NCBI RefSeq assembly: GCF_900289195.1
Contig: NZ_OMOH01000013.1
Location: 23,969 to 55,269 of the forward strand
DNA length: 31,301 bases
Reading direction: 5' to 3'
DNA from: Propionibacterium ruminifibrarum
Lineage (GTDB): Bacteria; Actinomycetota; Actinomycetes; Propionibacteriales; Propionibacteriaceae
Part shown: in pieces, positions 1 to 29,811 of the stretch
Numbering within the stretch: position 1 is the stretch's first letter
Layout of the letters: each line of letters opens with the position of its first letter
The notes under the pieces: model-generated
Seen by the model: only the letters and a program-made list of their open reading frames with translations
Databases searched by the model: none
What the model was told of the DNA's origin: nothing
Translations under genes and position numbers: made by a program

Positions 1-253
1 ATTTCCCCATCTATTCAGATGGGGCTCCATTGAGACAGTGGCATGTCCCCACGGTTGCGTCTGACGGGTGCGTATTTCCCCATCTATTCAGATGGGGCTC
101 CATTGAGACTCGTCGATGCGCATGGTGACGTCCCAGCCCTGCTCGCATTTCCCCATCTATTCAGATGGGGCTCCATTGAGACTTCAGCTCGTACCACGTC
201 ATCGACTGGTGCTCCTGATTTCCCCATCTACTCAGATGGGGCTCCATTGAGAT
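1..253 (+). CRISPR. CRISPR array fragment, truncated by the left window edge: four 36-bp repeats and three spacers (37, 37 and 35 bp)
   Basis: The repeat ATTTCCCCATCTATTCAGATGGGGCTCCATTGAGAC is exact at 1-36, 74-109 and 147-182. The fourth copy at 218-253 has two substitutions (T>C at 231, C>T at 253), as expected for a degenerate trailer-end repeat. The repeat contains the palindrome CCCCATCT/AGATGGGG. Its 3' end, ATTGAGAC, resembles the 8-nt 5' handle (ATTGAAAC/ATTGCGAC type) of type III/I crRNAs, which supports plus-strand transcription. Spacers lie at 37-73, 110-146 and 183-217. Confidence 0.95.
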
Positions 254-296
254 TTCGGGTTCGCCTTACGTTTTCTGCTTTTAATCTGGTTAAATG

Positions 297-340
297 AATA
301 ACGGTGGGGCTACATCATATGATGTAGCCCCACCGTTATT
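297..340. terminator. Perfect 22-bp-arm inverted repeat between the array and the cas operon; candidate bidirectional terminator
   Basis: AATAACGGTGGGGCTACATCAT (297-318) is the exact reverse complement of ATGATGTAGCCCCACCGTTATT (319-340). The flanks are A/T-rich (TTAAATG upstream, CAGTATGCTTATG downstream). It sits between the last repeat (253) and the stop of the convergent minus-strand gene (354). Confidence 0.6.
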
Positions 341-353
341 CAGTATGCTTATG

Positions 354-2550
354 CTAGTGAGAGTTGTGTCTGCGGCGCTGTTTATTTGGCCTGGGGATGA
401 TAATCGGCGTCGGAGTGTTAGCGGCCAAGTCGACGGGCGACAGGCCTCGCTTGTCTTTCGGCTTGCCAGTTTTTGAGTCGCTCTTGTTGTTCTCCTTGTT
501 CTCATCAAGGGTCATATAGCGAACCTCGGTGCCATCGCTGTAGCCGAACGCGGCACGTTGCAAGGCCTTCACCCAAGGAGTCTTCGGGAGGTTGTTGCCG
601 TTCGGTAAAGAGAATTCCGCGATCTCGGCTGGTGATGTCACGCTGCCAAGACAGCCATTCAAATTCACATAGTCGCTTGCGAGCTCTTCATTTTTAACTG
701 CACGTAGACCATTCTTGGCAATTCTTGTCTCCACAACGCCAAGACCAAATGGCTTACCCATCCCCATGCGCAAGAAACCGATGGCGCGTGGATCCTTTTG
801 TTTCTCGCTCGCTGGCACCAAGTTTTCCGGGGTCAGCAGCCAAATCAGTGCGCCAAGCTCCTCTCTGCTCAGATTGGTGAATCTCATCGTACAGCGCAAT
901 ACGCTGCCCACCTCCACCCCACGACCGCGCCGTCACTCGTACGGCCTCATTGCTATGGTCCAGGCCGGCTGATTGGGTAGAAGTGATTCCTTCCCTTGGA
1001 AAGCCTTTACGGTCCAGTAATTTTCGATGCACCGGATAGGCGGCGGCTCCGAGAGAATGATTCGCTGAAAAGAACTCGTTCCGCGCGAGCTCGGAATCGT
1101 CGTTCCTTGGTGTTTCGCCAGAACGGCTCATCGTGAGGAAACGGCGAGCCGAACTCGGCTTTGGGGACAGTAACGGTGCGAGCCGCATCGGGGGCGTCTT
1201 GTTATCGTCGGGGGCAGGGGTATCGACTTTATCGAAGGAGAGATGTCCTCGTGAGGCGACGTCCCCGCCAGTAGCACCCGCGCCAGCTTCGGGCACGACA
1301 TAGCCGAAAACCCTGTCAGCAGCCGACGCCTCAACCTTTTTTGCTACGGGTAGGACATTCTGGGCGGCGGCCAGCTCTCGAGGGGACTTGCTGTAAGGAC
1401 GGCGGCCGACCATTGTCGGGAAGACGTCCACGACCTGCGCGATGCCTGGAGACATTGGTTTGTCAGGGTCGATTGCGTCAGACAACTGGACGAAGACGAG
1501 ATCGCCTTCACTCATGTAGTCTGAAACGGATGCGGCTCGGTTGAGCACATGCTTGTCACCGCCCGGTTGTTCTCTCTGCTCGCGGTACGTGCGAAGGACC
1601 TCGGCATACCCGTCTACATGGCTGGCGCTGAGAGGAAGAATGCTCCCGGTGAGAGGCTCCCCGTTCGTGTCCGCCTTGAAGAAGAAACGTTCATAGATCT
1701 TCTCATCGTACAGTTCACGTGAGGTCTTGCCGTCTGGGCTCGTCCGGCACGGGTATCCCCACACGTCGAGAGTCCGCACGCTGTTCGCGCCAGTGATGGT
1801 GAAGAAGTTCTCGAGGTCCTCACCGTTCCACACGCCTGTGACCATGAGGTGCCTGCCAGATTTTCCCTTCTGCCATTCTGTGAGGCGGACCCTTGTCCAT
1901 TGCCCGTGAGGGGTCAGGCTGCGGAATCTCTGGAGAACTTGATTCTGGGTGATGACATTGCCGGGGCCGGTCGAGATCTCGGGATGGTTGTCGCGGACGA
2001 TGTCACCATGTCCCTTCCTCGCGTCATCGCGGATCAGGGCGCTGCGGAACTGACTGTTTTTGCCGTCAAGGATCTCCACAGCCAAGTTTCCGTCAGTGGT
2101 CGTGCAGATGCGGCCGGGGAAGAGGTTGTTGGCTGCTGCGGGATCAGCCCGGTAGGTCAGCCGCTGGGAGTGGTCGTTCTTGCTCCCCCGGAGTCCGGAC
2201 GTGTTCTCGACGGCGCCGAAGACGCGGAACCGCGAGCAGGTGAGGATCTCGAAGGCCCGCGAGATCATGCCCTTGACCATCGTCGGCGGGACCACGAGCT
2301 TGTCGTCGTCCACCATCGGGAGACTGATCTCGCCATCCTCCTGCTCCCCGAAGACCAGGGGCGTGCGGACAGTCATCTCCAGGTCGATCGATCCCGACCA
2401 GCGATCGGCGGCCAGGTGGTCGTGGCCGGTGGCCGGGCCATCGCTGAAGAGATCCTTCGGCAACAGATCCTTGCCCGCCATCTGCTGACTCGGTTGGCGC
2501 AGCACGGGAATCCTGTTGACCGCCGAGTGGAACGGTTTGAACTCACCCAT
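354..2550 (-). pseudogene. Large type III RAMP-family protein (TIGR03986/Csx10-like by motif), split by a +1 frame change near 905-932. About 731 aa if the frame is repaired.
   Basis: ORF 754-2550 begins with RAMP-type motifs (SGSIDLEMTVRTPLVFG, VVPPTMVKGMISRAFE). Its last ~55 aa read as low-quality sequence. ORF 354-917, in the adjacent frame, carries the expected RAMP C-terminus (RFTNLSREELGALIWLL ... GMGKPFGLGVVE, a G-rich loop). The downstream frame has a stop at 933-935, so the switch must lie in the G/C run at about 905-932. The ATG at 2550 lies 1 nt after the stop of the upstream gene (TGAGATG). Confidence 0.7.
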
Positions 2551-2551
2551 C

Positions 2552-3073
2552 TCAGGCCCACCTTCCCGTCATCAGCTCGTCGGTGAAGACGACATTGCCG
2601 TAGTCTTCCTCCTGCACGAACACCTCGACGCTCGTCATCCTCGGTTTCTTGTCCAGATCCGCTATGTCGCTGTGCTGCAGATAACTGTTGGTGCGGAACC
2701 AGCAGTTCTGGTCGGCTGCCGGGGCTTGTTCGTGCACGGAGATCTCCGCCGAGCCCGAGCCGTTGAGCCACCTCAGTTCACGGGCCTTCGCCCCGTCAAG
2801 CGCCTGCTGTCCCACGGCCCACAGCCGCAGCTCGTAGACGGTGCCCAGTGGTACCTCGTGGTCGGCCCCATCCAGCCTGGTCATCAGGGCCCCGGCAGAG
2901 GCCGCACGCACGGAGCGGGCCCCGGCCGTCGTATAGGCGATGCCCTGCCACTGTGGCGCGTTGCCGGTGAGTCGCGCCAAGGCCTCGCCCAGCGAGTCCT
3001 CGGTGAAGGGCGTGGAGGCCAGATGGCCCTCCTCCAGCAGGACCGGTTCGGCTTTCTCGGTGCTGGACATCAT
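2552..3073 (-). CDS. Small type III-associated subunit, 173 aa. It could be Csx19- or Cas11-like, but the family was not recognised.
   Basis: It starts at the ATGATG at 3073/3070 and overlaps the stop of the upstream gene (ATGA coupling). It sits between RAMP genes inside the operon. The longer track ORF (to 3487) is Arg/Gly-rich shadow sequence that overlaps the upstream gene. Confidence 0.65.
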   Translation of the reverse strand: MMSSTEKAEPVLLEEGHLASTPFTEDSLGEALARLTGNAPQWQGIAYTTAGARSVRAASAGALMTRLDGADHEVPLGTVYELRLWAVGQQALDGAKARELRWLNGSGSAEISVHEQAPAADQNCWFRTNSYLQHSDIADLDKKPRMTSVEVFVQEEDYGNVVFTDELMTGRWA

Positions 3074-4689
3074 GCGTCTTCCCCCTCGACGAGATAGGAC
3101 GACCAGCCGGTCCAGCCGTCGTCGCCGGCGGCCGGGTTCGGCTCGATCTGGACTTGCCTCAGCCGGGCCAGGATCTGCTCCGGCAGGGGCTCGGAGCCCT
3201 CGTCGTGAAGATCCCAGGGCTCTCCGACGATCCCCGTCCCGCCCTCGACACGGATCCGGGTGACCCGCACCTGCCCCAGGCCCCGCGTGCCACGACTGCC
3301 CAGCGGCAGGGTGCCCGCCGCGAGTTCGGCCAGCGTCAGACCCAGCAGGCACCATGCGGCCCTGCGACGGTTCAGGTCGGCTTCCTCTGGGAGCATGCCC
3401 GGATCCAGTTCGAGGTCGATGCTGTTCCAGTCGACGTCGTGCACCTCCTCGCTGTACAGGGCGCCCTCGGCGGCACCGCCGGTCCACCGGTCCCCGGCAT
3501 TGTGCGTGATCCTCCGTCCGGAAACGTGACCGGTGGCGAGGGTGTCGAGGACGGTGAGGGCGCCGCGGTGCTCGGTGCTGCCGAACAGGTCGCGCACGAG
3601 CACGGGATCATTGGCCAGCTGATCATGGACGCCGGTCTCGGACCAGTCGTGCTGGTCACCCAGCATGTCCCGGGCGGCGAGCACCGTGCGGGCGATCCGT
3701 GAGGCCCTGGACCGCAGCGCCCCGCGCACCGAGCTGCCGGGCAGCACCAGCGGATCGTTCTTGCCGGGGCCGCAGCGCAGCGGCCTGGTCGGCTCGGTCT
3801 CATTCGAGGACGGCTCCCCGTCCGCTGGTTCCCGGTCGGCTTCCTCGGCGGGCTCATTGGCCTTCTTCTCGCGAGGCTCGGCGACGAGGATCCCGCTCGG
3901 GCTGTCCCAGCCGATACTGATCCGCGCCCGCTCGTCACCCGAGCAGTCCGCGGGCCTGATGCGTTCGGTGATGTTCTGCCCGCCTGCCAGCCACGTCAAG
4001 AGCCCCTCACGCGAGCCGAGCTCGCTCCTGGTCAGCAGCCATGCCTCGTCGCCGTCGAGCTCGACGCGGCCCCAGCCGGCGTTGCGGCGCCCACCGAAAC
4101 CAACGCGCCCGGCCTTGAAAAGGCCCAGGATGAGACCGAACAACTGCTCGACCTGCTCAGGGCTCGCCCCCTGCTGCGGGGCACCGCCCCCGACGGGCGA
4201 CACCCCATCGGACGTGCCGGCCTGTGCGGTGATCGTGAGTGTGAGACTCCTGCCGGCCGGCACGTACTCGTGGGCGAAGAGCGCCGTGTCCCCGGCGGTG
4301 CCCCAGTACCGGTCGACGGCGATACCGGTGCGCCGTGCGAGCGGGCTCCGGCCCTCGTCGCCCTCGGTGCCCGCCGGATCCGTGAGGACCGCGGTCTTGT
4401 CGAGCTCGATGGCGTGGAAGGTCAGGGCAGCGGCGCGGTCCTGGTTCCCCCACAACAGCCCGAGGCCCCCGATCCGGTCACCGGCGAGTCGCTCGCAGGC
4501 CGCCCGCAGGGCGCCCTTGACCGATCGGCCCGTGATGACCGGGTTCCCGTGCCCGTCACGGGCGAAACACCGGGGTTCCGCCTCCCGGTCGGATCCGCTG
4601 CGGGAACGATCCACCGGCACGTCGACGCCGCCCGAGTGCAGCGGCGAACGGGTCACCAGGTGAACGGTCAACTCGTAGCGTGTCCTCAT
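3070..4689 (-). CDS. cas7: Cas7-Cas7 (Csm3/Cmr4-type RAMP) fusion protein, 539 aa
   Basis: Two RAMP cores are present: LVTRSPLHSGG ... PVITGRSVKGALRAACERL ... LWGNQDRAAALTFHAIEL, and PLVLPGSSVRGALRSRASRI ... LFGSTEHRGALTVLD. G-rich loops are present (GFGGRRNAGWGRV, GSRGTRGLGQV). The start overlaps the upstream stop (ATGA at 4686-4689). Confidence 0.8.
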   Translation of the reverse strand: MRTRYELTVHLVTRSPLHSGGVDVPVDRSRSGSDREAEPRCFARDGHGNPVITGRSVKGALRAACERLAGDRIGGLGLLWGNQDRAAALTFHAIELDKTAVLTDPAGTEGDEGRSPLARRTGIAVDRYWGTAGDTALFAHEYVPAGRSLTLTITAQAGTSDGVSPVGGGAPQQGASPEQVEQLFGLILGLFKAGRVGFGGRRNAGWGRVELDGDEAWLLTRSELGSREGLLTWLAGGQNITERIRPADCSGDERARISIGWDSPSGILVAEPREKKANEPAEEADREPADGEPSSNETEPTRPLRCGPGKNDPLVLPGSSVRGALRSRASRIARTVLAARDMLGDQHDWSETGVHDQLANDPVLVRDLFGSTEHRGALTVLDTLATGHVSGRRITHNAGDRWTGGAAEGALYSEEVHDVDWNSIDLELDPGMLPEEADLNRRRAAWCLLGLTLAELAAGTLPLGSRGTRGLGQVRVTRIRVEGGTGIVGEPWDLHDEGSEPLPEQILARLRQVQIEPNPAAGDDGWTGWSSYLVEGEDA

Positions 4690-6641
4690 CGCAGGCCTCC
4701 TTCAGCCGTCGGGCCGGCCTTCTGGTCGTTGCCGTCACCGCTCAGAAGGTGCTGCTGGGAAAGCCGGGTCAGGCCGAAGTCCTGCCGGCCCAGCAGCTCG
4801 TGCCCGAGGACGAATCGACCGAAACCCTGCGCTGTCAACTCCCCGAAACCGGTCACCGAGAGCCGGGCCAGCGCGGCAATCACCGCGCCGGGGTCAGCGC
4901 CGGGAACCGGCTGCACCCGCAGCACGGAACCGGCCCGGGCCGCCACGCGAGTTGCGCGCGGCTGCTGGTCGGCGGCGGACCAGGAGTCCACGCGGCGGTG
5001 CCGCACCCCGGCGGCGAGCGCGCCCTCGGCCCTGGCGAGTTCCACGTCGGCGCCCCCGCGGCCAAGGGCGGCGAGCAGATCGGACACGGTGCCGCCCGGC
5101 CCGAGGGCCCCGGATCTGGCGAGGACGTCAGAGGTGAACCACAGCGTCGTCGCGCCGTCCCCGTCCCAGGCCGGCCGGTCAGGACGGGCCGGGACGAAGT
5201 CTCCCGCCCGGCACTCCACGCGGCCGTAGGAGCCGCCCATCCGCCGGGAGCCCAGCCGGGCCGTCACCGGCTCACCGGCGGGGAACGCCTCGTGCAGGCG
5301 TTCGCCGAGGTGCTCGTGCAGCCGCTGCGACACGAGGACGGACGCCCCCATCCGCAGCCCGGCGGGCAGCGCCCGCACCAGGAACAACCGGCCCTGGCTC
5401 GCGGCGCCGGTGGCCGGGTCGTGGGCCGTGGACTGGCGCCCCACCAGGGCGGGCGCACCGAGGGACCCGGCCGACGGCATCCCAGCGGGTGCGTCCGCGG
5501 GGACGACGCCGGGGAAGACATAACCCGAACGGACCGGCACCTGCGCCCCGTCCGCGTCCTTGGCCGCGGATGAGGCGCCGAACAGCGGATTGCGCATCGG
5601 CAGGACCGCGGACCCCTGGTCGGGGGTCTTCGGCCTGGTCAGGACGAGCGGTGCCGGCAGGCCCCGCACGCCCTGGGCCATCACGGTGGCGTCGGAGACG
5701 AGCAGGTCACCGGCGACGACGGCGTCGCGCACCATCTCATCATCGGGGAAGGCCCGCCGCAGCCGGCGGTGCACCCAGGGCAGGAGCACCGTGCCGCGCA
5801 GGAAGTCCAGGGAGCGCACCTCGTTGGACAGCGGCACCTCGTAGGAGACCACCGGGGTGAGGAGCCTCAACACCAGGTCTGCCCCGACGAAGCCCGGATC
5901 ACCCGCCGCAGTGACACGGCTTGGGGTGAGGAGCGGGGCGGTGAACCCCCGGTCAGCGGCGGTCGGCGGGGTGGGTGCGGGCCCCGTCCACTCCTTGAGC
6001 CTGGTGCGGCACCACTCCCTGGCCTGCGGGGCGTCAACGGCGTCCCTGATGAGTACGTCGCACAGGCCGTCCCCGTCGGAGCGGTTGGAGCCGATACCGC
6101 GCACCAGGAGCCCCGACAGCGCCAGGATGAGCTCGGCGCCCTCCCGCTGGTCGGCCTCCCAGGTGAGGGGGCGTCCACGCAGATCGGTTTGCGACAGGCT
6201 CACCCGGCCGCGGAGGGTGCAGGCGGCCGCCCGCTCGAAGAAGCGCAGGAAATCGTTCTTGGCGGTGCCCGTGGTCTCGTCGATCGACAGCGAGACCACC
6301 TCGTGCACGGCGACGTCCGGGTCGTCGTCGGGGACGGTCGCGTCGGTGAAGCTCACCAGCCGCGGCGACTCGGGCGTGCCGAAGAGGGCGGTGGTGAAGT
6401 CGTGCCATGGGCCACGAGGGGCCTCGTCCAGGGCGCGGGCCGCGGTGGCGGCCTGCTCGCGCACCACGCCCGCCAGGACCGTGCCACGCACCACCGGCCG
6501 GCCGTTCGCGTCCTTCTCAACGACGGAATTCACCCCGCCGGCGATGCCGGTGCCCGTGCCCACACCCCAGTCGGAGCGGAAGACGACGGTGACGGGGAAC
6601 TCCAGTGCCCCTGGCTGCGGGGGCGCTGACGTACGGCTCAT
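4686..6641 (-). CDS. Multi-RAMP fusion protein, 651 aa. The N-terminus is Cas7-like, followed by at least one more RAMP domain (possibly Cas7/Cas5-like).
   Basis: N-terminal motifs: FPVTVVFRSDWGVGTG ... GRPVVRGTVLAGVVRE ... LFGTPESPRLVSFTDA ... GIGSNRSDGDG. Second module: LVLRLLTPVVSYEV ... FLRGTVLLPWVHRRL. The C-terminus has the G-rich loop TGFGELTAQGFGRFVLG. The start overlaps the cas10 stop (ATGA at 6638-6641). Confidence 0.75.
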   Translation of the reverse strand: MSRTSAPPQPGALEFPVTVVFRSDWGVGTGTGIAGGVNSVVEKDANGRPVVRGTVLAGVVREQAATAARALDEAPRGPWHDFTTALFGTPESPRLVSFTDATVPDDDPDVAVHEVVSLSIDETTGTAKNDFLRFFERAAACTLRGRVSLSQTDLRGRPLTWEADQREGAELILALSGLLVRGIGSNRSDGDGLCDVLIRDAVDAPQAREWCRTRLKEWTGPAPTPPTAADRGFTAPLLTPSRVTAAGDPGFVGADLVLRLLTPVVSYEVPLSNEVRSLDFLRGTVLLPWVHRRLRRAFPDDEMVRDAVVAGDLLVSDATVMAQGVRGLPAPLVLTRPKTPDQGSAVLPMRNPLFGASSAAKDADGAQVPVRSGYVFPGVVPADAPAGMPSAGSLGAPALVGRQSTAHDPATGAASQGRLFLVRALPAGLRMGASVLVSQRLHEHLGERLHEAFPAGEPVTARLGSRRMGGSYGRVECRAGDFVPARPDRPAWDGDGATTLWFTSDVLARSGALGPGGTVSDLLAALGRGGADVELARAEGALAAGVRHRRVDSWSAADQQPRATRVAARAGSVLRVQPVPGADPGAVIAALARLSVTGFGELTAQGFGRFVLGHELLGRQDFGLTRLSQQHLLSGDGNDQKAGPTAEGGLR

Positions 6642-8398
6642 GCCCGGCCCTCCTCAACGGTCGAGTGATCCGCGGCCGATGGCTTCCTGGCCCCGGAAGG
6701 AGGCGGGGACGCCGTGCCCAGCGGGTCGTCCAGGTACGAGGCGGGGAGCAGATCGGTCAGATCCATGAGGTCGAACATGGCCCGTTTTCCGCCGAGCCGC
6801 TTCGCATCCGGGAAATGGTCCTCGGCATCTCGCCACTCGTCCTCGGCCTGTTCCAGCAGCCGGTCGTGTTCCGCGGTGTTCCCGGCGAGTTCGGCTTGGG
6901 CGGCGTTGGACATCATCGCGCGGATGCGCGCGGCCCGGGTGCGGGGGAAGCCGTCCTGCCGGTCGTCATCGTTCTGCGAGATCGCGCCCGCGAAGAGGCG
7001 AACCTGCTCACAGACCTCCGGCCAGGCGGCATGCCCGGCGAGACCCTGCGACGAGCCGGCGGTGTCGGATCGCAAGACGAAGGGCCGGTTGCTGAGCCGC
7101 CCGTAGGCGGCGAGCAGTTCCTCGGGGTCGAGCACCGTGGTGTCGAGCAGCACGTGGTAGGTCAGTGTCGAGACCGATGGGGAAGCGGTCTTGCCGACCT
7201 CCTTGGCCTCGTCGACGAGGCGTTCGGCCAGGTCGTAGGCGAGGTGGAAGGGGAATTTGAATCGGACCACGGCTGCACCGGCGGCCGCCGTCATCGGCCC
7301 GGTCTGGCCGTCGGGGTGGTCCCCGAGGTGCCTGAGCAGGGGGTCGGCGGCAGTGGCCTGCTCGTAGTGACGCAGATAGGCGGCGGCGAACGGCAGGGCG
7401 TAGTCGCCGCTCGTGATGACGGTGACGTCATCACCGCCGAGCAGCACGGGCACGACGGGGATGACCTTGTACTCCCTGCCAGCCGTGACGGCGTCCTTCT
7501 CGGCCCAGCCGGCGACATCGCGCCAGGCCAGCCGGCAGGCCTGGCGCACGGCGCGGTCCAGGTTCTCGTTGACGGCGAGGGTGAACTTCCGAAGGGCGTC
7601 GGCGTCATCGGGTGTGCACTTGACGGCCTGCGTGAACTCCTCGCAGGGGACGCGGCGCATGGCGGCGGCGAGATCACGCATGATCGCCCCGACGCCGTTG
7701 CCGTCGATGTGGACGATGGCGACCTTCGACAGGCCGCCCTGGGAGTCGTCCTCGTTGTCGGGCTGGAGCATCCGCTCCAGCCTGGTCGGGTCGCGGGCGA
7801 GTTTCTCGTCCGCCCCCGTGGGGGCCAGGTCTTTGAGCAGCTTCGAACGCGCCGCGTGCACGGGGAGCCTCTTGTGACGTGAGGGCAGCGAGTAGGGCTC
7901 CTTCCTGTCCTCGTGGGGCTCGTCGTCCTGGTCCAGCGGGGGAGCGGCCGGCAGGGCCGAGTCGCTGGCCCCGGCAAGGAAGGGCATCCGGGCGAACCGG
8001 CCGTCGGCGGGAGGCCGCCGCAGGGCGTACTCGGCGGCGGCCTCGTTGAGGGCCCGCAGGTCGCCCGCCCCGAAGTACTCAGAACCCGTCTTCACGTAGA
8101 CGCCACTGACGTCCATTCCCGGCGCCTTGCCGAAGGCCCGCAGCGTGACATCGCGGATGATGTTCCTGGCCTCGGTCTCGTCGTCGACGGTGACGATGAC
8201 CCTGCCCGAGGAACGCGACACCCACTGATGATCATTGGTCTCACACCGATCATCGGTATCCGGCTTCTTCGGGAGGGCACAGGCTACCCAGGACTCGAGA
8301 TCGGTGATCTGGTGCGAGGCGCCGATGCTCTCCCGCAGCCGCGGGGACTCGAAGATGAAGCGCTGCTTGCTGTTGACGTCGAGGAGGACGGCGTACAT
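6638..8398 (-). CDS. cas10: Cas10-like cyclase/palm subunit lacking an HD nuclease domain, 586 aa
   Basis: The N-terminus MYAVLLDVNSKQRFIFESPRLRESIGASHQI is a Cas10 palm-entry motif with no preceding HD domain. Cyclase motifs are present: IVHIDGNGVG and VLLGGDDVTVITSG (GGDD). ATG at 8398 is preceded by GAGG, 17 nt after the upstream stop. The track ORF extension to 8725 overlaps the upstream gene and looks non-coding. Confidence 0.85.
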   Translation of the reverse strand: MYAVLLDVNSKQRFIFESPRLRESIGASHQITDLESWVACALPKKPDTDDRCETNDHQWVSRSSGRVIVTVDDETEARNIIRDVTLRAFGKAPGMDVSGVYVKTGSEYFGAGDLRALNEAAAEYALRRPPADGRFARMPFLAGASDSALPAAPPLDQDDEPHEDRKEPYSLPSRHKRLPVHAARSKLLKDLAPTGADEKLARDPTRLERMLQPDNEDDSQGGLSKVAIVHIDGNGVGAIMRDLAAAMRRVPCEEFTQAVKCTPDDADALRKFTLAVNENLDRAVRQACRLAWRDVAGWAEKDAVTAGREYKVIPVVPVLLGGDDVTVITSGDYALPFAAAYLRHYEQATAADPLLRHLGDHPDGQTGPMTAAAGAAVVRFKFPFHLAYDLAERLVDEAKEVGKTASPSVSTLTYHVLLDTTVLDPEELLAAYGRLSNRPFVLRSDTAGSSQGLAGHAAWPEVCEQVRLFAGAISQNDDDRQDGFPRTRAARIRAMMSNAAQAELAGNTAEHDRLLEQAEDEWRDAEDHFPDAKRLGGKRAMFDLMDLTDLLPASYLDDPLGTASPPPSGARKPSAADHSTVEEGRA

Positions 8399-8415
8399 GG
8401 TTCTCGCCTCGATGC

Positions 8416-9708
8416 TCAGGACTGTTCGGTGGGCTCGGGTGCGAGGACCTCCTTGATGACACCGCCGGCCCGCGCGGTGGTCACATCCAGCGCAGGGACG
8501 TACTGTGCCGTGTTCTTGTCGTACTCGTACACGGTGAAAGAGAGCGTGTTGACCAACCGACCGATGAGGAAGGCCACTGCATATGGTCCGCGCAGGAAGA
8601 GGTGCACATGAGGGATCCCATGGGCGCCGCACATGGCACGAATGTGGTCGGTGATCTGCTTCGCGATCGCAGCCCCGTCCAGAGGATCTATCCAGCCAGG
8701 CTGTGCCAGTCGCAGATGACTCCATGCGCGCAGGCGTCCCTTCATCGTGTCGAGGAAGCCATTGAAGGCCTTGTTACTAATATCGTCACGCAGGTCGACG
8801 TAGACGGCGAGCTCGCCAGATTCAGACGGGTTGTCTTCGCCAGATGCCACTTCGGTGACGAATTCGCCGGTACCGGCGGGTCCGCTGGGCCAGACCTTGT
8901 TCCAGTTGTCGGTGACCTCCGCACGCCCGATCAGGGTTTCCGGGAACTGGGCGCCCAGGGCGAACGCGACGGACAGGTGTGCATGTCCGCTCACCCTCAA
9001 CAGTGAGGCGCCGTGGTTCGCGATGGCACCACGGACGATCCCCAGCACGGCTTGAAGGTCTTCAAGGCTCTGCCGGCGGATGGGCTCATCTTCCGAATCG
9101 GGCAGGACCATGTCGAAATGGTGCTTGGCCCGTGACGAGTTCGGCGAATCATCGGGCCGTGTCTCGATGTTCAGTTCGATCGCGTCGGTGTCGGCTGCGA
9201 GCGCTGCGAGGTGATCCTTGACGTAGGCGGTGATGAATTGCTTCTGGTCCGAATCCTTCAAGCCATCAAAGGTCTTCCCATCAGGGCCCTTTTTTGCCAT
9301 GAACTGCATGATTTCAGACAATGTGCCCTCTGGTTTGCGGAGCACCCTGTCCGGTTCATTAATGTCGAGTCGTTCACCGTTTGACACGGCATTGACGAGG
9401 GTCAGCGAGAACTTCTGGTTGTTCTCAAGGAGATCGAGCAGGCCGGTGGCCTCCAGCGTCTGAATGATCTCACTGTTCTCGACGTCGGGAGTCACGACGA
9501 GGACGCCACCAGACAGTCCATTGCCCATCGCCTCCTCGATACGGGCCTCGATGGAACCGGTGGTGAGGTCCTCCTTGTCACGCCAGACCGGTATGCCCGC
9601 TGCGCGCAGCAGCCAGGCCAGTCGGTCGGCGATCTTCTCCCCATCTGAGTGACGGTACGAGATGAACACCGGCCCTCGCGCGTCGTACTTGGTTGTGACA
9701 GCGGGCAT
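8416..9708 (-). CDS. TIR-SAVED fusion effector (predicted cyclic-oligoadenylate-activated NADase), 430 aa
   Basis: The N-terminal TIR motif block is VFISYRHSDGEKIADRLAWLLRAAGIPVWRDKEDLTTGS ... GGVLVVTPDVENSEII. The C-terminal half has SAVED-like blocks (LRVSGHAHLSVAFALGAQF ... HVHLFLRGPYAVAFLIGRLVN ... FTVYEY). AGGAGG precedes the ATG at 9708. It is the first gene of the cas operon. Confidence 0.85.
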   Translation of the reverse strand: MPAVTTKYDARGPVFISYRHSDGEKIADRLAWLLRAAGIPVWRDKEDLTTGSIEARIEEAMGNGLSGGVLVVTPDVENSEIIQTLEATGLLDLLENNQKFSLTLVNAVSNGERLDINEPDRVLRKPEGTLSEIMQFMAKKGPDGKTFDGLKDSDQKQFITAYVKDHLAALAADTDAIELNIETRPDDSPNSSRAKHHFDMVLPDSEDEPIRRQSLEDLQAVLGIVRGAIANHGASLLRVSGHAHLSVAFALGAQFPETLIGRAEVTDNWNKVWPSGPAGTGEFVTEVASGEDNPSESGELAVYVDLRDDISNKAFNGFLDTMKGRLRAWSHLRLAQPGWIDPLDGAAIAKQITDHIRAMCGAHGIPHVHLFLRGPYAVAFLIGRLVNTLSFTVYEYDKNTAQYVPALDVTTARAGGVIKEVLAPEPTEQS

Positions 9709-9722
9709 GTGTCCTCCTGGGG

Positions 9723-9746
9723 CGCGGGCCCGGGTCGGGGCCCGCG
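9723..9746 (-). promoter_or_regulatory. GC-rich hairpin about 14 nt upstream of the TIR-SAVED start codon
   Basis: CGCGGGCCC (9723-9731) pairs perfectly with GGGCCCGCG (9738-9746) across a 6-nt loop. On the minus strand it lies just 5' of the AGGAGG ribosome-binding site. Its function is unknown; it could be the terminator of the upstream remnant or a 5' UTR element. Confidence 0.3.
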
Positions 9747-9774
9747 GTGGATCGGTGGTTTACCGGGCCCCGCA

Positions 9775-10149
9775 TCACGAAGGTCGTCGGCGACCACGCG
9801 AAGACGAGGCTGTCGGGGATGTCTCACGACGGACTCTACCGCTGTTGGCGATTCGGAGGCGCCGTATCACCAAGTGGTCTTCGTGCTTGTGGGGAGCAGG
9901 TTCCAGCAGGTGCGACCACTCGTGCACAGTGAAGCCACACGCCGAGGCCGCCAGGGAAACGAGCCGTTCGCGTGGGGAGGGCATGGCGCTTGCCCGCCAT
10001 CAAGTCGAACGCAGCACCGTAGCCTGCTTGGAAAGCTCGTCTTCCCCGAATGAACCGAGGATGGACTGCGAGTCGACGATGATCACTTCGTTCCGGCCGA
10101 TGATTGCGCATGCGGCGCCGATGGCGTGGTGAAGCTCATCACGACGCAT
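9775..10149 (-). pseudogene. Possible decayed nucleotidyltransferase-type (toxin-like) gene remnant
   Basis: A short ORF at 10000-10149 (MRRDELHHAIGAACAIIGRNEVIIVDSQSILGSFGEDEL) resembles the N-terminus of small nucleotidyltransferase-fold toxin-like proteins, then hits a stop. A different frame (9775-9984) continues with GFTVHEWSHLLEP ... HEDHLV. The total length is too short for an intact member. This is recognition from memory only. Confidence 0.25.
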
Positions 10150-10552
10150 AATGCTCGCGTTCCCAGTCGATGATGGCTTGCCTTTGGACAGCGGTGAGAA
10201 GGCCCGCCATGGAGAGACCTCGCGGAGCTGGCAGGAGTCCTCATCCTCGGCGCACATGCGTTCCCTCATGGCGGAGGCATCCTGGGCCTCTACCCACTTC
10301 TCCCAGCGCTCGGTGTTGGCCAGGTGCAGGGCCCCTCGATTCGCCCTGCGATTGCGGCGTATGCCGGCGCGAGCGATAGCGAGCCAGGACACGGTGTCAT
10401 CCCAGTTGACCGATGCCTCGAGCAGGCGATGCAGGAGCAGGCTGTGTCGACGCGAACGGCTGGAGGCCACACGTCTGCAGGCGCCTCGCCTATCGTTGGG
10501 GCAGGGCCCGCATGCCGGATGCGGGCCGGACAGAGCGAGGAGAACCCGCAGC

Positions 10553-11257
10553 GTGAACGCGACCACTGGCAGCGTCGTCGAGATCTACCTGGCGCGGCAC
10601 GGGCAGACGTGGTTCAACAAGCGCGACCGCGTGCAGGGCTGGTGCGACTCCCCGCTGACCGAGGCCGGCCACGAACTCGCCGCGGCGCTCGGGCGCGGGC
10701 TCGCCGGCGACGGCATCGTCCTCGACGCGGCCTACAGCGGCGACATGGTTCGCCACCACGAGACCGCCCAGGGCGTCCTCGACGCCATGGGCTCGCCCCT
10801 GCCCGTCACCCAACTCCGGGCACTGCGCGAGATGTCCTTCGGCGGCTGGGAGGGCGGCTTCGACCCGGACATGTGGCGGGCCTGCTGGGACAACCTCGGC
10901 GTCAGCACCGACGAGGAGGCCTTCGCCAGGGGGCTTCGCCTCGTCGACGTCTACGACGGCATCAGCATCACCAATCCCGACCCCGACTACCCGGCCGAGA
11001 ACACCGCGGCCGTCGCCGACCGCGCGGTCGTCGCCCTCAACGACATCGCCGACACCGAGGCGGGTCTGCGCGAACGCTCCCGCGTCCTCGTCGTGACGAG
11101 CGGCATCACCGTCGTCTGCGTGCTCACGGCGCTCGGCTTCCCGCCGAGGAACCGGGTGGGCAACGGCGCGGTCGCCCTGCTGCGCCGGGACGCCTCCGGC
11201 TGGAGCGCCGCGACCGTCAACGACATGAGTTGGGCGAAGAACGGCCGCGCCGCCTGA
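10553..11257 (+). CDS. Histidine phosphatase (phosphoglycerate-mutase-like) family protein, paralog A
   Basis: It contains VEIYLARHGQTWFNKRDRVQGWCDSPLTEAG (RHG motif) and REMSFGGWEG. GTG at 10553 is preceded by GAGGAG. The track ORF extension back to 10151 is antisense to the remnant region. Confidence 0.8.
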   Translation: MNATTGSVVEIYLARHGQTWFNKRDRVQGWCDSPLTEAGHELAAALGRGLAGDGIVLDAAYSGDMVRHHETAQGVLDAMGSPLPVTQLRALREMSFGGWEGGFDPDMWRACWDNLGVSTDEEAFARGLRLVDVYDGISITNPDPDYPAENTAAVADRAVVALNDIADTEAGLRERSRVLVVTSGITVVCVLTALGFPPRNRVGNGAVALLRRDASGWSAATVNDMSWAKNGRAA

Positions 11258-11361
11258 CGGCACCCGGTGCGGCCCTGGAGCGCCGGGCCGCCCCGTAACC
11301 AGACAGGCGCTCGGAAGACGACCCGGCGCCCCGGCGAGGGCACCGACGAAGGAGAACCGAC

Positions 11362-12069
11362 ATGACCGAGACCAAGGGGCCCGTCGAGATCTACCTGGTA
11401 CGCCACGGCGAGACCTGGTTCAACAAGCTCGACCGCGTACAGGGCTGGTGCGGCACCCCGCTCACGCCCAGGGGCTTCGCCGTCGCCCAGGCGATCGGCC
11501 GGGCCTTCGCCAGCGCCGGCATCGACTTCACGGCCGCCTACTGCGGCGACATGCTGCGCCACCACGAGACGATGACCTCGCTGCTCGCCGGCATGGGCTC
11601 CACCCTGCAGCCGATCTCGCGTTTCGGCCTGCGCGAGATGTCCTTCGGTGCCTGGGAGGGCATGCCGAACAAGCTCATGTGGGAGGCCGCGTTCCGGGAG
11701 CTGGGCGTCGCCTCGGTGCAGGAGGCCCTCGATGCCGGCCACACCCTCCTCGACATCTACGACGTCTTCAGCCGCACCAACCCCGACACCGACTACCCGT
11801 CGGACAACGTCAGGCAGGCGGCCGACCGGGCCCTGGCGACACTCGACGAGATTGCCGAGACGGAGGCCTCGCCGGGGGACACGCCCAGGGTGCTGGTGGT
11901 GAGCAGCGGCGTGACGATTGCCTGCATCGTCGACCGGCTGGGCGCCGAACTCACCGCCCCGATCCACAACGGCGGCGTGAGCCGCCTGCTGCGCGGGGAG
12001 AACGGCGACTGGACCGTGCTCGACCACGACGACGTCAGCTGGGCCGAACGGGGCGGCTGGCAGGGCTGA
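11362..12069 (+). CDS. Histidine phosphatase family protein, paralog B
   Basis: It contains VEIYLVRHGETWFNKLDRVQGWCGTPLTPRG and REMSFGAWEG. It is collinear with paralog A along its whole length. GAAGGAG precedes the ATG at 11362. Confidence 0.85.
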   Translation: MTETKGPVEIYLVRHGETWFNKLDRVQGWCGTPLTPRGFAVAQAIGRAFASAGIDFTAAYCGDMLRHHETMTSLLAGMGSTLQPISRFGLREMSFGAWEGMPNKLMWEAAFRELGVASVQEALDAGHTLLDIYDVFSRTNPDTDYPSDNVRQAADRALATLDEIAETEASPGDTPRVLVVSSGVTIACIVDRLGAELTAPIHNGGVSRLLRGENGDWTVLDHDDVSWAERGGWQG

Positions 12070-12073
12070 GTGC

Positions 12074-13873
12074 TCAGCGGAGGGCGTAGAGCCGGTTGGG
12101 CGTTGGTCGGCTTGACGGCAGGTTGACATAGACGAGGACCGCCCCGGGGACGGCGGCGAGTACCACCCCCTCGAATCGTTCACCCACCGTGTTGCGCCGG
12201 TTCATCCGTTCCAGACAGTTGTACTCCTCCATGGTGATCTCTGTTGTGCTGCTCGCCGAGCCGTTGGGTGCTGCCAGGTGCAGTCGGTACACGTAGGCGG
12301 AGTCCTCGTAGTCCTTGGTGATGTCGAACGTGGTGGCATCGACTGCGGAGGATAGTTCGATGGGGGTCGCGGTGCGGGTGGCCGGGTCGAAGACGGCGGC
12401 GGGCTGTTCCTGGGGATCGATCCTGTCCTCGCTGGGCCACATGCTTGCGATGAGGCTCGTGTGCGACAGGGCAAGGTCTGGCCCGATGGTCTGGCCGAGG
12501 TCGATGCCCTGGACGCCGGCGGTGCCGGCTGCCGCCACCTCGTCGATGCTGATGGCGGCAGCCGGACTGCCCTCGGCGTATGTGGGTTCGTCGGTGTAGT
12601 GGATCGTCCAGCCGTCGATGATCAAGGGCCGGTTGGCGCTGGTGGCCACCGTGCTGAGGTGGGTTCTTCGGTCCGGGTCGTCCTGGGGCACCAGGACGAG
12701 ATCGGTGGCCATGTCTGATCCCGGCTCACTGCGCAGGACGAATGTCGAGTGGCCCGCCGGGCCGACGTACGCAGACGGGTCGGAGCTGGTGGTTTTTTGT
12801 TCGGGCAGGGCCCATAGGGTCGTGCCGGTGGCCAGGTCGATTGCCTCGGTGCCGATGAGGGCAGCGGTGTCGGTGAGCTGGATCGGCTGGGTGCCGGGGA
12901 TCGGTTTGCCCTCTGCAGTGGCATCCATGGCGAGTGCGCGTTCGGTGACGACTCGCCCAGTGAGGGTGTCGAGGACGGTGACGAGCGTCGCGCGGGTCCA
13001 TTGTCTCGAACTGCTTCCCTGACGTCTGAGGCTGTCCTCCGGCGCCAGAGTCACGAATGACGCGTAGTGGTGGTCGGGGCCGGTGATGATCCTGGTCGGT
13101 GTGCGGACGTTTGACGCTGACAGGTTGAGCAGCTGGGCGTTGGGCCGGTGGTAGGTCCACCGGGTCGACCCGTCGGCCGGGTCGAGGCCGAGAATCCTGC
13201 TGCCGTCGGCGAGGATGGGGCCTGCGGCCCCGGCGGTGATCGTGTCGACGTCCTCGTCGAGGTCGAGGGTCCAGGCTAGGTCTCCGGCCACCGTGGCGGG
13301 CATGGCCGGGATCTCCGGCGGTTTGGGGGCGAGCTGCTGGATCGGCCGTGCCACCCAGGTGGGGACGAGTGCCACGGCCAAGGCGAGGACCACGCTGAGA
13401 AGGCCGGTGAGGGCGGTCGCGGTGTGGGACGTGGCGTCAGTGGGGAGTGGCCGCCAATGGGCCGTGTCCCGCGGGCCACCCGAGTCACGCGAGGGATGGG
13501 TGCGCAGCAGCAGGTCCGAGATGGCGAGGGCGCCGGAGCACAGGCAGACGACCCCGATGATGACAGGATGGCCGAGGAAGAACCCGGAATCAGCGGCCAC
13601 CCGTACCGAACAGCCTGTGCAGAGGGCCATGGCCGCAATCGACAGCACGGCGATGATGACTGGTGCGGTCGCCAGGTTTCCTCTGGGGCCCGGGCCGAGA
13701 TCCCAGGAGATGGTCACGCCGAAGCCCCACATGACGAGAGTGACGGGCACGAACAAGACAGCGGTTACGAGGGGCTCATTCGTGACGATGATGTCCTGCG
13801 CCAAGAACCGGACGGCCAGCACGACCAGGGCGACGATGGCGAGGAGTGCGCCGGCGCGGATGCCGCGCAGCAC
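12074..13873 (-). CDS. Polytopic membrane protein with a beta-propeller-like (PQQ/BamB-like repeat) ectodomain, paralog 1. The N-terminus is disrupted by a 1-nt deletion.
   Basis: Hydrophobic helices are followed by repeats of the type GLDPADGSTRWTY, VLDTLTGRVV and AIDLATGTTLWALP. The longest in-frame start is GTG at 13873. The family N-terminus (MNPATADGHEKQ ... MSRTR, ATG at 13998 behind GGAGGA) is in another frame, because ACCCGG-TCGGC lacks one base relative to ACCCGGATCGGC in paralogs 2 and 3. If the frame is repaired the gene spans 12074-13998. Confidence 0.75.
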   Translation of the reverse strand: MLRGIRAGALLAIVALVVLAVRFLAQDIIVTNEPLVTAVLFVPVTLVMWGFGVTISWDLGPGPRGNLATAPVIIAVLSIAAMALCTGCSVRVAADSGFFLGHPVIIGVVCLCSGALAISDLLLRTHPSRDSGGPRDTAHWRPLPTDATSHTATALTGLLSVVLALAVALVPTWVARPIQQLAPKPPEIPAMPATVAGDLAWTLDLDEDVDTITAGAAGPILADGSRILGLDPADGSTRWTYHRPNAQLLNLSASNVRTPTRIITGPDHHYASFVTLAPEDSLRRQGSSSRQWTRATLVTVLDTLTGRVVTERALAMDATAEGKPIPGTQPIQLTDTAALIGTEAIDLATGTTLWALPEQKTTSSDPSAYVGPAGHSTFVLRSEPGSDMATDLVLVPQDDPDRRTHLSTVATSANRPLIIDGWTIHYTDEPTYAEGSPAAAISIDEVAAAGTAGVQGIDLGQTIGPDLALSHTSLIASMWPSEDRIDPQEQPAAVFDPATRTATPIELSSAVDATTFDITKDYEDSAYVYRLHLAAPNGSASSTTEITMEEYNCLERMNRRNTVGERFEGVVLAAVPGAVLVYVNLPSSRPTPNRLYALR

Positions 13874-14061
13874 GCCGACCGGGTTCTGGACATAGCGGCT
13901 GCTGGTTTCTCGGTCTTGCCGGTGTCCTGGTCAGTTGTCGCGCTGGTGTCGGTGCCGGCGAGTTGCTTCTCGTGGCCATCAGCGGTGGCGGGGTTCATGG
14001 AGGTTCCTCCCGGCTGGGTCGGTTCTTTCGGGCCTGGGCGTGTCTGGTCTCTTGGGCGGGT

Positions 14062-15954: not shown

Positions 15955-15971
15955 CCGGGCCGGGATCGGTG

Positions 15972-17891: not shown

Positions 17892-17955
17892 GGGGTTCCT
17901 CACGGCTGTGCTGGTTCTGTTCGGGCCTGGGCGGTTTCCGGTCTCTCGGGCGGGT

Positions 17956-23987: not shown

Positions 23988-24620
23988 ATGTCCTGTGTCT
24001 ACCACCCCTCGGTGCAGGCCGATCTTCTCTGCGAGAAGTGCAACGGCGGACTGTGTCAGAGCTGCGCCGGCAGACTCCGCAGACGGCGCTGCCCCAGGTG
24101 CACGATGGCTGGACTCATCGAACGTGTCCCGGACATCGTGATCGACACCATCTTGGCCATCGTCTTCTTCGTCATCGGCATGCTGATTCTCCACTGGGTG
24201 ACCAAACAGCCCTTCGGCTTCCACGGCAGCTGGCACCAGATCTCCGGCGACATCACATTCTGCGCAATGTGCGCCGGCTTCCCGCTCGGCCTGCGCATCG
24301 TGAACTCGCTACGTGTGAGAAATCTGACGTTGTGGAGTTTCAGGGGCGACTACCTCGAGCTGCTTCCCATGATGATCGTGCTCAACCTCGGGAAGTACGT
24401 CCTGATCATCGGCTTCGCCTTCATCCTTGGCGTCTTCGCGCTCATCTACACCAGCATTCACCATGCCGTGGTCCTCATCCGCATGCTGCTCCTCGGACGC
24501 AAGATCCGCAGCCTCCAGGCGATGCCCGCCGAGCTACAGGCTGTGCTGCCCGCCGAGCAGCTCGCTGTAGAGCCGCAGGTCGAGGTCCGTGAAGACATTG
24601 AGCACCACCGTGAGGGCTGA
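23988..24620 (+). CDS. B-box-type zinc-finger membrane protein
   Basis: The N-terminus is C-x2-H-x8-C-x2-C-x4-C-x2-C-x8-C-x2-C (MSCVYHPSVQADLLCEKCNGGLCQSCAGRLRRRRCPRC). It is followed by about four hydrophobic helices. The gene is noticeably more A/T-rich than its neighbours. No clear SD precedes the ATG at 23988. The 3' end overlaps the convergent macrodomain gene by 87 nt. Confidence 0.6.
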   Translation: MSCVYHPSVQADLLCEKCNGGLCQSCAGRLRRRRCPRCTMAGLIERVPDIVIDTILAIVFFVIGMLILHWVTKQPFGFHGSWHQISGDITFCAMCAGFPLGLRIVNSLRVRNLTLWSFRGDYLELLPMMIVLNLGKYVLIIGFAFILGVFALIYTSIHHAVVLIRMLLLGRKIRSLQAMPAELQAVLPAEQLAVEPQVEVREDIEHHREG

Positions 24621-25328: not shown

Positions 25329-25438
25329 CGTCTGCGGATCGGTCGTCACCCCGTCAGCCTGCCGCCGCCGACGTGAGCGCACAAGACGGCACTTCGCGGT
25401 GCGGTGCTCACCCGCAGGTGACCCGGCTCCGGCCCGCC

Positions 25439-28196: not shown

Positions 28197-28457
28197 GCGC
28201 CATGATTTCAGCTGGCGGTGAACATGAACCGTGGTGCGGCCGCTCCCTCAGGTGCTGGCCCCGGGTCGCCGTGAGCCGGATGGCTCGCGTCGGGGCGGGC
28301 CGCTTCGGAGTCCGGCCACCAGTGCCCACCACGCGCCGGGGCTCCGCGTCCGGTGGTGGTCCACGTTCCGGAAGGGCGGGCGCCGGGGTCCTCGGGCGCA
28401 TACAATCGACGACTGCACCCCCTAGTGGAGCGCCTCTACCCCAAGGAGCTTTTCTTC

Positions 28458-29738: not shown

Positions 29739-29768
29739 CGCGTCCTGGCGCCCGCGCCTGAACAAGAA

Positions 29769-29811
29769 CAGGGAGGTCGTCACCACCGTTGCGGTGGTGA
29801 CGACCTCCCTG
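29769..29811. terminator. Perfect 19-bp stem hairpin downstream of the LPXTG gene
   Basis: CAGGGAGGTCGTCACCACC (29769-29787) pairs with GGTGGTGACGACCTCCCTG (29793-29811) across a 5-nt loop. There is no U-tract on the plus strand; the T-rich tract (TTCTTGTT) is on the minus-strand side. It is likely an I-shaped or bidirectional terminator. Confidence 0.5.

Follow-up and report, generated by a model that had tools for sequence, protein, structure and literature searches.

The left end of a 31,301-nucleotide stretch from Propionibacterium ruminifibrarum JV5 (the window, i.e., the whole stretch of DNA analyzed) carries a CRISPR locus. This locus is likely a fused-subunit type III-D interference and signaling module of the III-Dv design, in which cyclic oligoadenylate (cOA) would be passed to a TIR-SAVED effector, and the module is probably disabled in this strain. 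Six co-directional cas and effector genes on the minus strand, spaced by 4-nt overlaps or by gaps of 1–17 nt, form a run that ends at a CRISPR array (Table 1). Three junctions are ATGA overlaps (6638–6641, 4686–4689, and 3070–3073), a 17-nt gap lies between the TIR-SAVED gene and cas10 (locus tag PROPJV5_2414), and a 1-nt gap at 2551 lies between csx19 and cas7-insertion. The window versions of Cas10, Cas7-Cas5, and TIR-SAVED each show 100% identity to a P. ruminifibrarum entry at NCBI. The G+C content of the window is ~65–75%, with a lower-GC left end. A preliminary description of this DNA had already recognized six packed genes converging on an array, and the open reading frame (ORF) coordinates agree with the junctions that it gave. 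The gene identities that it proposed were borne out by hidden Markov model searches, which matched TIR-SAVED, Cas10, RAMP/Cas7, TIGR03986, and Csx19. It had also found no Csm6/Csx1, Cas6, Cas1, or Cas2 in the window; profile and homologue searches of the window likewise detected no Csm6, Csx1, Crn4, CorA, Cas6, Cas1, or Cas2, and no detectable homologue of Csm6-2 or of a ring nuclease. Neither a canonical ancillary nuclease nor an HD-containing Cas10, either of which would have pointed to a fragment of an ordinary III-A/III-B locus, is encoded nearby.

The core proteins comprise a Cas10 with a Palm/cyclase domain and a Cas7 and Cas5 RAMP backbone encoded beside a CRISPR array, as in type III systems in general. 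Cas10 was matched by PADLOC (Cas10, 2.5e-106), by Pfam Cas10-Cmr2_palm2 (the second Palm domain), and by chain 8s9t_C of the Synechocystis III-Dv complex (1.4e-40). Its GGDD motif at residue 321 is present in 120/120 relatives. The N-terminus has no HD motif, and none occurs in the first 120 residues of 119 of the 120 relatives. The earlier call of an HD-less Cas10 with an intact GGDD was therefore correct, but the missing HD domain is not the notable feature it was taken for, as an HD domain occurs in only 3% of the Cas10 proteins of III-D systems (PMC11229360). The 651-aa protein, previously viewed as a generic multi-RAMP fusion, is a fusion indeed, specifically of an N-terminal Cas7 and a C-terminal Csx10-type Cas5 (PADLOC Cas5_IIId at residues 537–615), and it aligns with residues 5–594 of the 791-aa Synechocystis Cas7-Cas5-Cas11 (E = 4e-39). 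Only 43–55 residues follow the Cas5 glycine-rich motif in 120 relatives (633–699 aa). Structure prediction, which had been suggested for counting the domains, agreed: in the AlphaFold2 (AF2) model (pLDDT 74), the C-terminus forms no helical bundle, and the best PDB match of the model is 8s9x_A (TMq 0.67, TMt 0.58). Cas7-Cas5 thus lacks a Cas11 domain, as do its ~120 relatives in Actinomyces and Propionibacterium. The possibility that Cas11 is encoded by a gene of its own was dismissed, since the genes are too tightly packed to accommodate it. The C-terminal region of Cas10 is therefore the sole Cas11-like element, as in III-D2. At position 38 of Cas7-Cas5, which aligns with Synechocystis D26, the window protein has Asn (N38), the P. 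australiense protein Ser, and 114 of the 120 relatives Asp; mutation of D26 kills one cleavage site in Synechocystis (PMC11026444).

The 539-aa protein had been described as a Cas7-Cas7 fusion and is Cas7-2x by profiles (Pfam RAMPs, 2e-34 in two stretches; PADLOC Cas7_IIId, 2.5e-48) and by its match to the Cas7-2x chain 8s9t_D (5e-22), with acidic residues that line up with Synechocystis D29/D31/D33. Csx19 was identified by PADLOC alone (2e-53 and 3e-26), its sequence having no Pfam, NCBIfam, or PDB match. The last gene, cas7-insertion, was matched by TIGR03986 (9.5e-26 and 3.7e-13) and PADLOC Csm3/Cas7_IIId, and the intact P. acidifaciens orthologue matches Synechocystis 8s9t_E (2.7e-19).

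The Csx10-type Cas5, Csx19, the TIGR03986/all1473 Cas7 with an insertion (its gene frameshifted), and the HD-less Cas10 are all features of III-D. The preliminary description had favored III-D2; its assignment to III-D with fused subunits stands, but the variant does not, as the gene set and order (cas10, cas7-cas5, cas7-2x, csx19, cas7-insertion) are those of III-Dv (PMC11026444). The III-Dv system of Synechocystis sp. PCC 6803 (PDB 8S9T–8S9X; PMC11026444) has the same five genes in the same order, and each core protein of the window matches the corresponding chain, with the exception of Csx19. Both Cas10 proteins are HD-less with GGDD, and the Synechocystis enzyme produces cOA upon target binding (PMC11026444). 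By contrast, the Synechocystis Cas7-Cas5-Cas11 is 791 aa long, whereas the window protein, at 651 aa, has no Cas11 fused to its C-terminus; the window Cas7-insertion lacks a ~100-residue N-terminal domain; Csx1/Csm6 takes the place of TIR-SAVED in Synechocystis; the window has no adjacent cas6 or adaptation genes; and identity is only ~23%. III-D2 systems are characterized by Cas7x3, Cas7-5, CorA, a toxin-antitoxin module (VapBC-like), and S-adenosylmethionine-AMP (SAM-AMP) signaling (PMC13294483). The III-D2 system of Gammaproteobacteria bacterium HyVt-522 (PMC13294483) resembles the window locus in its Cas11-less Cas7-5, in having the Cas10 C-terminal domain as the sole Cas11-like element, in its four Cas7 domains overall, and in its HD-less Cas10. 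It differs in that three of its Cas7 domains are fused as Cas7x3, whereas Cas7-2x, Csx19, and Cas7-insertion are separate in the window; it also lacks Csx19, has CorA and a toxin-antitoxin module, and carries a GGDE motif in a Cas10 that makes SAM-AMP/SAM-AMP2 (PMC13294483). The window encodes no CorA, and its effector is a TIR-SAVED.

The nearest core relatives outside Propionibacterium are Actinomyces III-D loci (PMC11229360, PMC12830947, PMC13187428), which share the Cas11-less five-gene core (identity ~47–55% for Cas10 and ~50–57% for Cas7-Cas5). These loci have no CRISPR array within 10 kb, and their effectors (Csm6-2, Crn4, CorA) are divergently transcribed, unlike the co-transcribed TIR-SAVED of Propionibacterium. 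The Actinomyces effector module consists of Csm6-2 (CARF-HEPN-CARF-HEPN), a small Unk_01 protein, now recognized as the Crn4 ring nuclease (PMC12830947), and CorA-like proteins. Csm6-2 responds to cyclic hexaadenylate (cA6; PMC11229360) or preferentially to cyclic pentaadenylate (cA5; PMC13187428). The architecture of the clade appears to lie between III-Dv and III-D2. We found no paper that places the Actinomyces/Propionibacterium clade there; the loci are already typed as III-D (PMC11229360).

The effector at the head of the operon combines an N-terminal TIR domain, catalytic Glu included, with a C-terminal SAVED domain (SAVED matches of 1e-25 to 3.6e-22, the latter from Pfam; Pfam TIR_2, 2.2e-10; PADLOC SAVED_TIR, 4.8e-125). 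It matches MkeTIR-SAVED of Microbacterium ketosireducens (PDB 7QQK; E = 1.8e-63) in its two-domain architecture, length, catalytic Glu (E86 aligns with Mke E84), and BB-loop Asp-Leu. MkeTIR-SAVED differs in being an effector of a type II cyclic-oligonucleotide-based antiphage signaling system (CBASS), encoded with a CD-NTase (10.1101/2022.05.04.490601); no CD-NTase (SMODS) gene was found beside the effector, elsewhere in the window, or at any of four related loci. Close homologues (51–78% identity) all head the same operon, as in P. australiense, P. acidifaciens, and two more Propionibacterium lineages. The next homologues (~40% identity) are ~430-aa actinobacterial proteins, and the one examined belongs to an operon of type II CBASS that also encodes SMODS and ThiF. 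From these homologies, the Propionibacterium TIR-SAVED is predicted to be derived from CBASS. It is worth noting that MkeTIR-SAVED conferred immunity once it was coupled to a type III system (10.1101/2022.05.04.490601).

When the Propionibacterium CRISPR clade was compared with ~115 CBASS-type sequences, the catalytic Glu and the BB-loop Asp-Leu were kept, and 25 of the 115 columns conserved at ≥90% in the CBASS-type homologues were changed. In Mke numbering, the changes include Y115 to I/P/W, R388 to S/T/D, W394 to Y/F, and the BB-loop Pro-Pro to Thr-Thr, and the arginines R153, R158, R191, R250, and R295 are lost. The window protein has S390, Y396, and I116 at the positions of R388, W394, and Y115, and so does not match MkeTIR-SAVED at the cA3 (cyclic triadenylate) pocket and filament residues or at the NAD-site tyrosine. 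In MkeTIR-SAVED, R388 and W394 matter for cA3-driven multimerization and cA3 binding, and Y115 for NADase activity (10.1101/2022.05.04.490601). A second CRISPR III-D-associated TIR-SAVED NADase is TSR1, the TIR-SAVED-Crn4 protein of an Arachnia propionica III-D locus (10.64898/2026.09.16.751991). Proteins of the TSR1 family have likewise lost R388 and vary in W394 and Y115; even so, cA3 activates the one that was tested (10.64898/2026.09.16.751991), so these losses do not exclude cA3. Furthermore, the positions through which TSR1 contacts cA3, T189/R190 and N425/T426 (Mke T174/R175 and N385/T386; 10.64898/2026.09.16.751991), are kept across the three groups, the window protein among them. TSR1 differs in its C-terminal Crn4 ring nuclease, which forces a dimer and self-limits signaling and was seen in ten TSR1-type proteins; the window protein ends at residue 430 with no Crn4/Unk_01 match, and no Crn4 homologue was found anywhere in the window. 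As TSR1 is only 25–30% identical to the window TIR-SAVED, the two would have been recruited separately into CRISPR loci. Taken together, cA3 is moderately probable as the ligand of the window TIR-SAVED, the losses of the arginines, W394, and Y115 seem to go with CRISPR association and not with a new ligand, and a cA3-dependent NADase activity is predicted.

Two genes for proteins that act on ADP-ribose derivatives lie in the vicinity of these NADase genes and are probably core genes: a Macro-domain protein in the window (24534–25475, minus strand; within ~15 kb) and an ADP-ribosylglycohydrolase in P. australiense (locus L002, 2884–3972; within ~5 kb).

The preliminary description had treated the ~731-aa RAMP as one gene product. 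It is instead read in two frames, an N-terminal one at 754–2550 (598 aa) and a second at 354–917, which encodes the C-terminal 180 residues between 917 and 357. In a tblastn search with the intact 734-aa P. acidifaciens orthologue, residues 1–550 corresponded to 2550–919 in one frame and residues 551–730 to 917–378 in another. The frames are split by a single extra G near 918, where the window has TGGGGTGG and the orthologues TGGGTGG (at the junction, CGGTCGTGGGGTGGAGGTGGGC in the window and ...TCGTGGGTGGAG... in two orthologues). Truncation would cost the product its C-terminal RAMP core and, with it, the glycine-rich loop. Programmed frameshifting was rejected: no slippery motif is present, and orthologues read through in one frame. 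The same lesion is seen in the Logan reassembly of ERR1938110, the sole sample to carry the proteins, which probably represents the same reads. The gene has been damaged independently in two sister species: in P. australiense (three assemblies), cas7-insertion is split by an insertion sequence (IS) element with a DDE_3 transposase, and two metagenome assemblies of P. acidifaciens have TGA rather than GGA at codon 638; the gene is intact in the related loci L007, L013, and L014. After repair of the frame, the ratio of nonsynonymous to synonymous divergence (dN/dS) between the window gene and intact orthologues is 0.22–0.28, compared to ~0.4 for the other operon genes, indicating that cas7-insertion was under constraint until recently and that the lesion is recent. 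The module in JV5 is probably disabled or badly impaired by this frameshift.

The P. australiense locus is heavily invaded by IS elements, with three transposase genes (DDE_3, HTH_33-containing, and DDE_Tnp_1) between csx19 and a short array (L002, 16775–21761). In two Actinomyces loci (L008, 18304–20685; L010, 19907–21905), the Cas7-insertion gene is immediately followed by one for a divergent paralogue, also of the TIGR03986 type (~27% identity).

In the mechanism that we propose, one copy each of Cas10, Cas7-Cas5, Cas7-2x, Csx19, and Cas7-insertion would assemble around a CRISPR RNA (crRNA) from the adjacent array, with processing by Csb2 and spacer acquisition by Cas4/Cas1-Cas2 supplied in trans by a type I-G system. 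Binding of a complementary foreign transcript would switch on the Palm/GGDD cyclase of Cas10, the HD nuclease being absent, and the resulting cOA, most likely cA3, would bind the SAVED domain of the co-transcribed TIR-SAVED. The TIR domains would then associate and hydrolyze NAD+, and the infected cell would be arrested. With no ring nuclease encoded, switching the response off would rely on the Cas7 domains cutting the target RNA. In JV5, the one-base insertion would truncate Cas7-insertion, the subunit expected to cap the complex and hold the crRNA at its 3′ end. The abortive-infection logic of this scheme, in which a cyclase-only Cas10 signals to a TIR NADase, had been anticipated in the preliminary description, and it is supported by homology and by an operon structure that is kept in at least five Propionibacterium lineages.

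Other readings of the effector and its messenger can be weighed against this scheme. The closest non-CRISPR homologues of the TIR-SAVED (~40% identity) are CBASS effectors, and the gene might be a CBASS remnant stranded beside the cas genes and not under their control; this is most improbable, given that it is co-directional with cas10 at a distance of 17 nt, heads the operon in five lineages at synonymous divergences (dS) of up to 0.9, evolves at a dN/dS of ~0.4, and has no CD-NTase nearby. It is similarly hard to believe that the locus is of the III-D2 type and signals by SAM-AMP rather than cOA. The Cas11-less Cas7-Cas5 does resemble the III-D2 Cas7-5 (PMC13294483), and CorA-like genes occur in the Actinomyces relatives; however, Cas7x3, CorA, and a toxin-antitoxin module are missing from the window, Csx19 and a separate Cas7-insertion are present, GGDD contrasts with the GGDE of the studied III-D2 Cas10 (PMC13294483), and the SAVED sensor of the effector binds cyclic oligonucleotides. 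A more substantial, though still unlikely, alternative is that the TIR-SAVED is tuned to cyclic tetraadenylate (cA4), cA5, or cA6, or to activation without filaments, matching the output of its Cas10 clade. The 25 altered columns, which include six arginines, W394, and Y115, could be read in this way, as could the pairing of sister Cas10 proteins (~50% identity) with the cA5/cA6-responsive Csm6-2 (PMC11229360, PMC13187428), and Hoikkala et al. tentatively proposed cA4 for CRISPR-associated TIR-SAVED (PMC11229360). Against it, the independently recruited TSR1 shows the same loss of R388 and variation at W394 and Y115 and is nonetheless activated by cA3 (10.64898/2026.09.16.751991). The conservation in the window protein of the T/R and N/T positions, which are cA3 contacts in TSR1, also argues for cA3. 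Cas10 enzymes in general yield mixtures of cA3 to cA6, another point that speaks against a different messenger.

The remaining alternative concerns the state of the locus, which might be fully functional if the frameshift were a sequencing or assembly error, or if both Cas7-insertion fragments were made and still assembled. The lesion is indeed a single base within a short stretch of Gs, no other gene is damaged (dN/dS of ~0.4), and the downstream frame starts with GTG exactly at the junction. Full function is quite doubtful, however, as two assemblies agree, though from the same reads; a four-base G run is in our judgment short for a homopolymer base-calling error; no convincing ribosome-binding site can be read ahead of the GTG; and loss of cas7-insertion recurs, by an IS element in P. 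australiense and by a nonsense codon in two P. acidifaciens assemblies. We therefore retain the reading of a III-Dv-design module that signals by cOA to TIR-SAVED and is probably disabled in JV5. Several points weigh against it: the clade has lost R388, Y115, R153, R191, and R250 and has Tyr/Phe in place of W394, R388 being needed for cA3-driven multimerization in MkeTIR-SAVED; the sister Actinomyces systems employ Csm6-2, which responds to cA5/cA6 (PMC11229360, PMC13187428); the identity of the messenger is one that we infer; one Cas7 RNA-cleavage site (Cas7.1) is probably dead, since its catalytic Asp is replaced by Asn; and both assemblies that show the frameshift were built from a single read set (ERR1938110).

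Overall, the locus joins a kind that is already cataloged, as TIR-SAVED in III-D was cataloged in 2024, with TIR-SAVED in seven of 1113 type III loci, III-D included (PMC11229360), and the related effector TSR1 was characterized in 2026. Propionibacterium is not named in the text supplements of the former study (PMC11229360). Current understanding is not overturned, and the window copy is probably non-functional; the Cas11-less core, the retuned TIR-SAVED, and the recurrent gene loss are modest additions. The locus provides a natural stand-alone TIR-SAVED wired to a fused-subunit III-D complex, a pairing that has been cataloged but never reconstituted with its own Cas10. A large Actinomycetota clade with the III-Dv gene set minus Cas11 bears on the proposed path from III-D1 through III-Dv and III-D2 to III-E. 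In addition, two independent recruitments of TIR-SAVED (the Propionibacterium clade and TSR1) both lost the CBASS filament arginine, which hints at a general retuning of TIR for CRISPR, and the same subunit gene, cas7-insertion, is broken in three ways in three species. A more ambitious reading would join these strands, and we think it improbable as a whole. It holds that the clade represents an undescribed III-Dv/III-D2 intermediate that keeps Csx19 and a separate Cas7-insertion and has already lost Cas11; that the CBASS TIR-SAVED captured in Propionibacterium was re-engineered, with the filament arginine and five other arginines lost, the BB loop changed, and no Crn4, so that its assembly mode or messenger may differ from that of any characterized TIR-SAVED; and that the three separate knockouts of the capping subunit would result from selection for disarming an NADase module that is costly and has no ring nuclease.

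Table 1. Features of the CRISPR locus at the left end of the window.
Feature	Positions	Strand	Basis or remark
CRISPR array, 4 × 36-nt repeat, 3 spacers of 35–37 nt	1–253	+	Open at the left edge of the window
Perfect 22-bp palindromic hairpin	295–342		Between array and cas7-insertion stop codon
cas7-insertion, TIGR03986 family, capping Cas7 with insertion domain; frameshifted	354–2550	-	Profiles, tblastn
csx19, 173 aa, small beta-rich subunit specific to III-D1 and III-Dv	2552–3073	-	PADLOC
cas7-2x, 539 aa, two fused Cas7 domains	3070–4689	-	Pfam, PADLOC, PDB match
cas7-cas5 fusion, 651 aa, without Cas11 domain	4686–6641	-	PADLOC, PDB alignment, AF2 model
cas10, 586 aa, cyclase/Palm with GGDD, HD-less, Cas11-like C-terminal region	6638–8398	-	Pfam, PADLOC, PDB match
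TIR-SAVED effector, 430 aa: N-terminal TIR, predicted NADase (catalytic Glu86), C-terminal SAVED sensor	8416–9708	-	Profiles, 7qqk match
Conserved operon upstream region: AGGAGG Shine-Dalgarno 9713–9717, -10-like TAGAGT 9833–9838	9713–9838	-	Five-region alignment

The repeats of the array start at 1, 74, 147, and 218 (unit ATTTCCCCATCTATTCAGATGGGGCTCCATTGAGAC), and the cas-proximal copy (218–253) is degenerate, with two mismatches. The repeat forms an 8-bp hairpin stem, in which the L013 repeat shows a compensatory change, and its 3′ end, ATTGAGAC, resembles the 8-nt tag ACUGAAAC of Synechocystis III-Dv (PMC11026444). Although the repeats had been called type III-like, they are not type III-specific. 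In an exact-match scan of genome contigs, among which P. ruminifibrarum is seemingly not included (the window Cas10 had no match there), the repeat was found only in P. australiense, where an identical repeat forms an array of >20 units directly downstream of the C-terminus of Csb2 (the type I-G Cas5-Cas6), Cas4g/Cas1g, and Cas2. Given this identity with the repeat of a type I-G array, pre-crRNA processing (by Csb2) and adaptation are probably borrowed from type I-G, whose genes are known here from P. australiense. The P. australiense arrangement, with the array downstream of cas2, together with the ATTGAGAC end and the degenerate cas-proximal repeat, indicates that the array is most likely transcribed on the plus strand, converging on the cas operon. 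The convergent array is kept in P. australiense, L013, and L014 and is not present in P. acidifaciens. The Logan contig from the same read set likewise stops at the array. For spacer 2 (110–146), the phage search gave a single marginal match, covering 29/33 nt (E = 0.07), in the gene for the major capsid protein of Microbacterium phage Isperia; neither of the remaining spacers matched the phage collection, and no spacer has a self-match inside the window. In P. australiense NML98A072 (L011, 99–2083), the type I-G cas4g/cas1g fusion gene is split over two frames near 670, a second frameshifted CRISPR gene in the genus.

The palindrome between the array and the cas genes folds at -45 and -42 kcal/mol (z-scores -8.1 and -9.4; 0/200 shuffles fold as well) and probably serves either to terminate transcription from both sides or to insulate the convergent array and cas units from each other; a general scan showed no excess of terminators over shuffled sequence. 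At the other end of the operon, AGGAGG and TAGAGT are the sole invariant blocks among five aligned Propionibacterium upstream regions. The TAGAGT box, ~110 nt upstream of the start codon, is a candidate promoter of the operon; a sigma-70 consensus scan found no promoter upstream of the operon. The short ORFs upstream of TIR-SAVED (9662–10132; remnant 10003–10149) had no family match. The 49-codon remnant (MRRDELHHAIGAACAIIGRNEVIIVDSQSILG..., minus strand) has its stop just upstream of the promoter region of TIR-SAVED and resembles a decayed gene; it is also found in locus L013, there with a 13-nt deletion.

Synonymous divergence across the operon is mosaic when the window (354–9708) is compared with L002, L013, L007, and L014. 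Relative to L013, dS is 0.16 for cas10, 0.75 for TIR-SAVED, and 0.68 for cas7-insertion, and relative to P. australiense it is 0.06 for cas7-2x and 0.25 for TIR-SAVED, a pattern that suggests recombination inside the operon. Two adjacent His_Phos_1 histidine-phosphatase genes (10151–12069, plus strand), with coaBC further on, flank the CRISPR locus. The same flank is present in every Propionibacterium locus whose flank could be examined, so the CRISPR site is a conserved chromosomal insertion point; it differs from the Actinomyces site, which lies beside ftsH and folate genes.

Elsewhere in the window, four tandem paralogues of 599–674 aa with weak PQQ_2/BamB-like beta-propeller matches are encoded on the minus strand (12074–19851), and an identical 36-nt segment at 14827 and 18739 within them points to a duplication or gene conversion of recent date. 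At 29226–29542, ~3.5 tandem copies of a 90-nt (also 45-nt) repeat encode a Ser/Glu-rich low-complexity stretch inside two overlapping plus-strand ORFs (28353–29738, which has no Pfam match, and 29122–30312).

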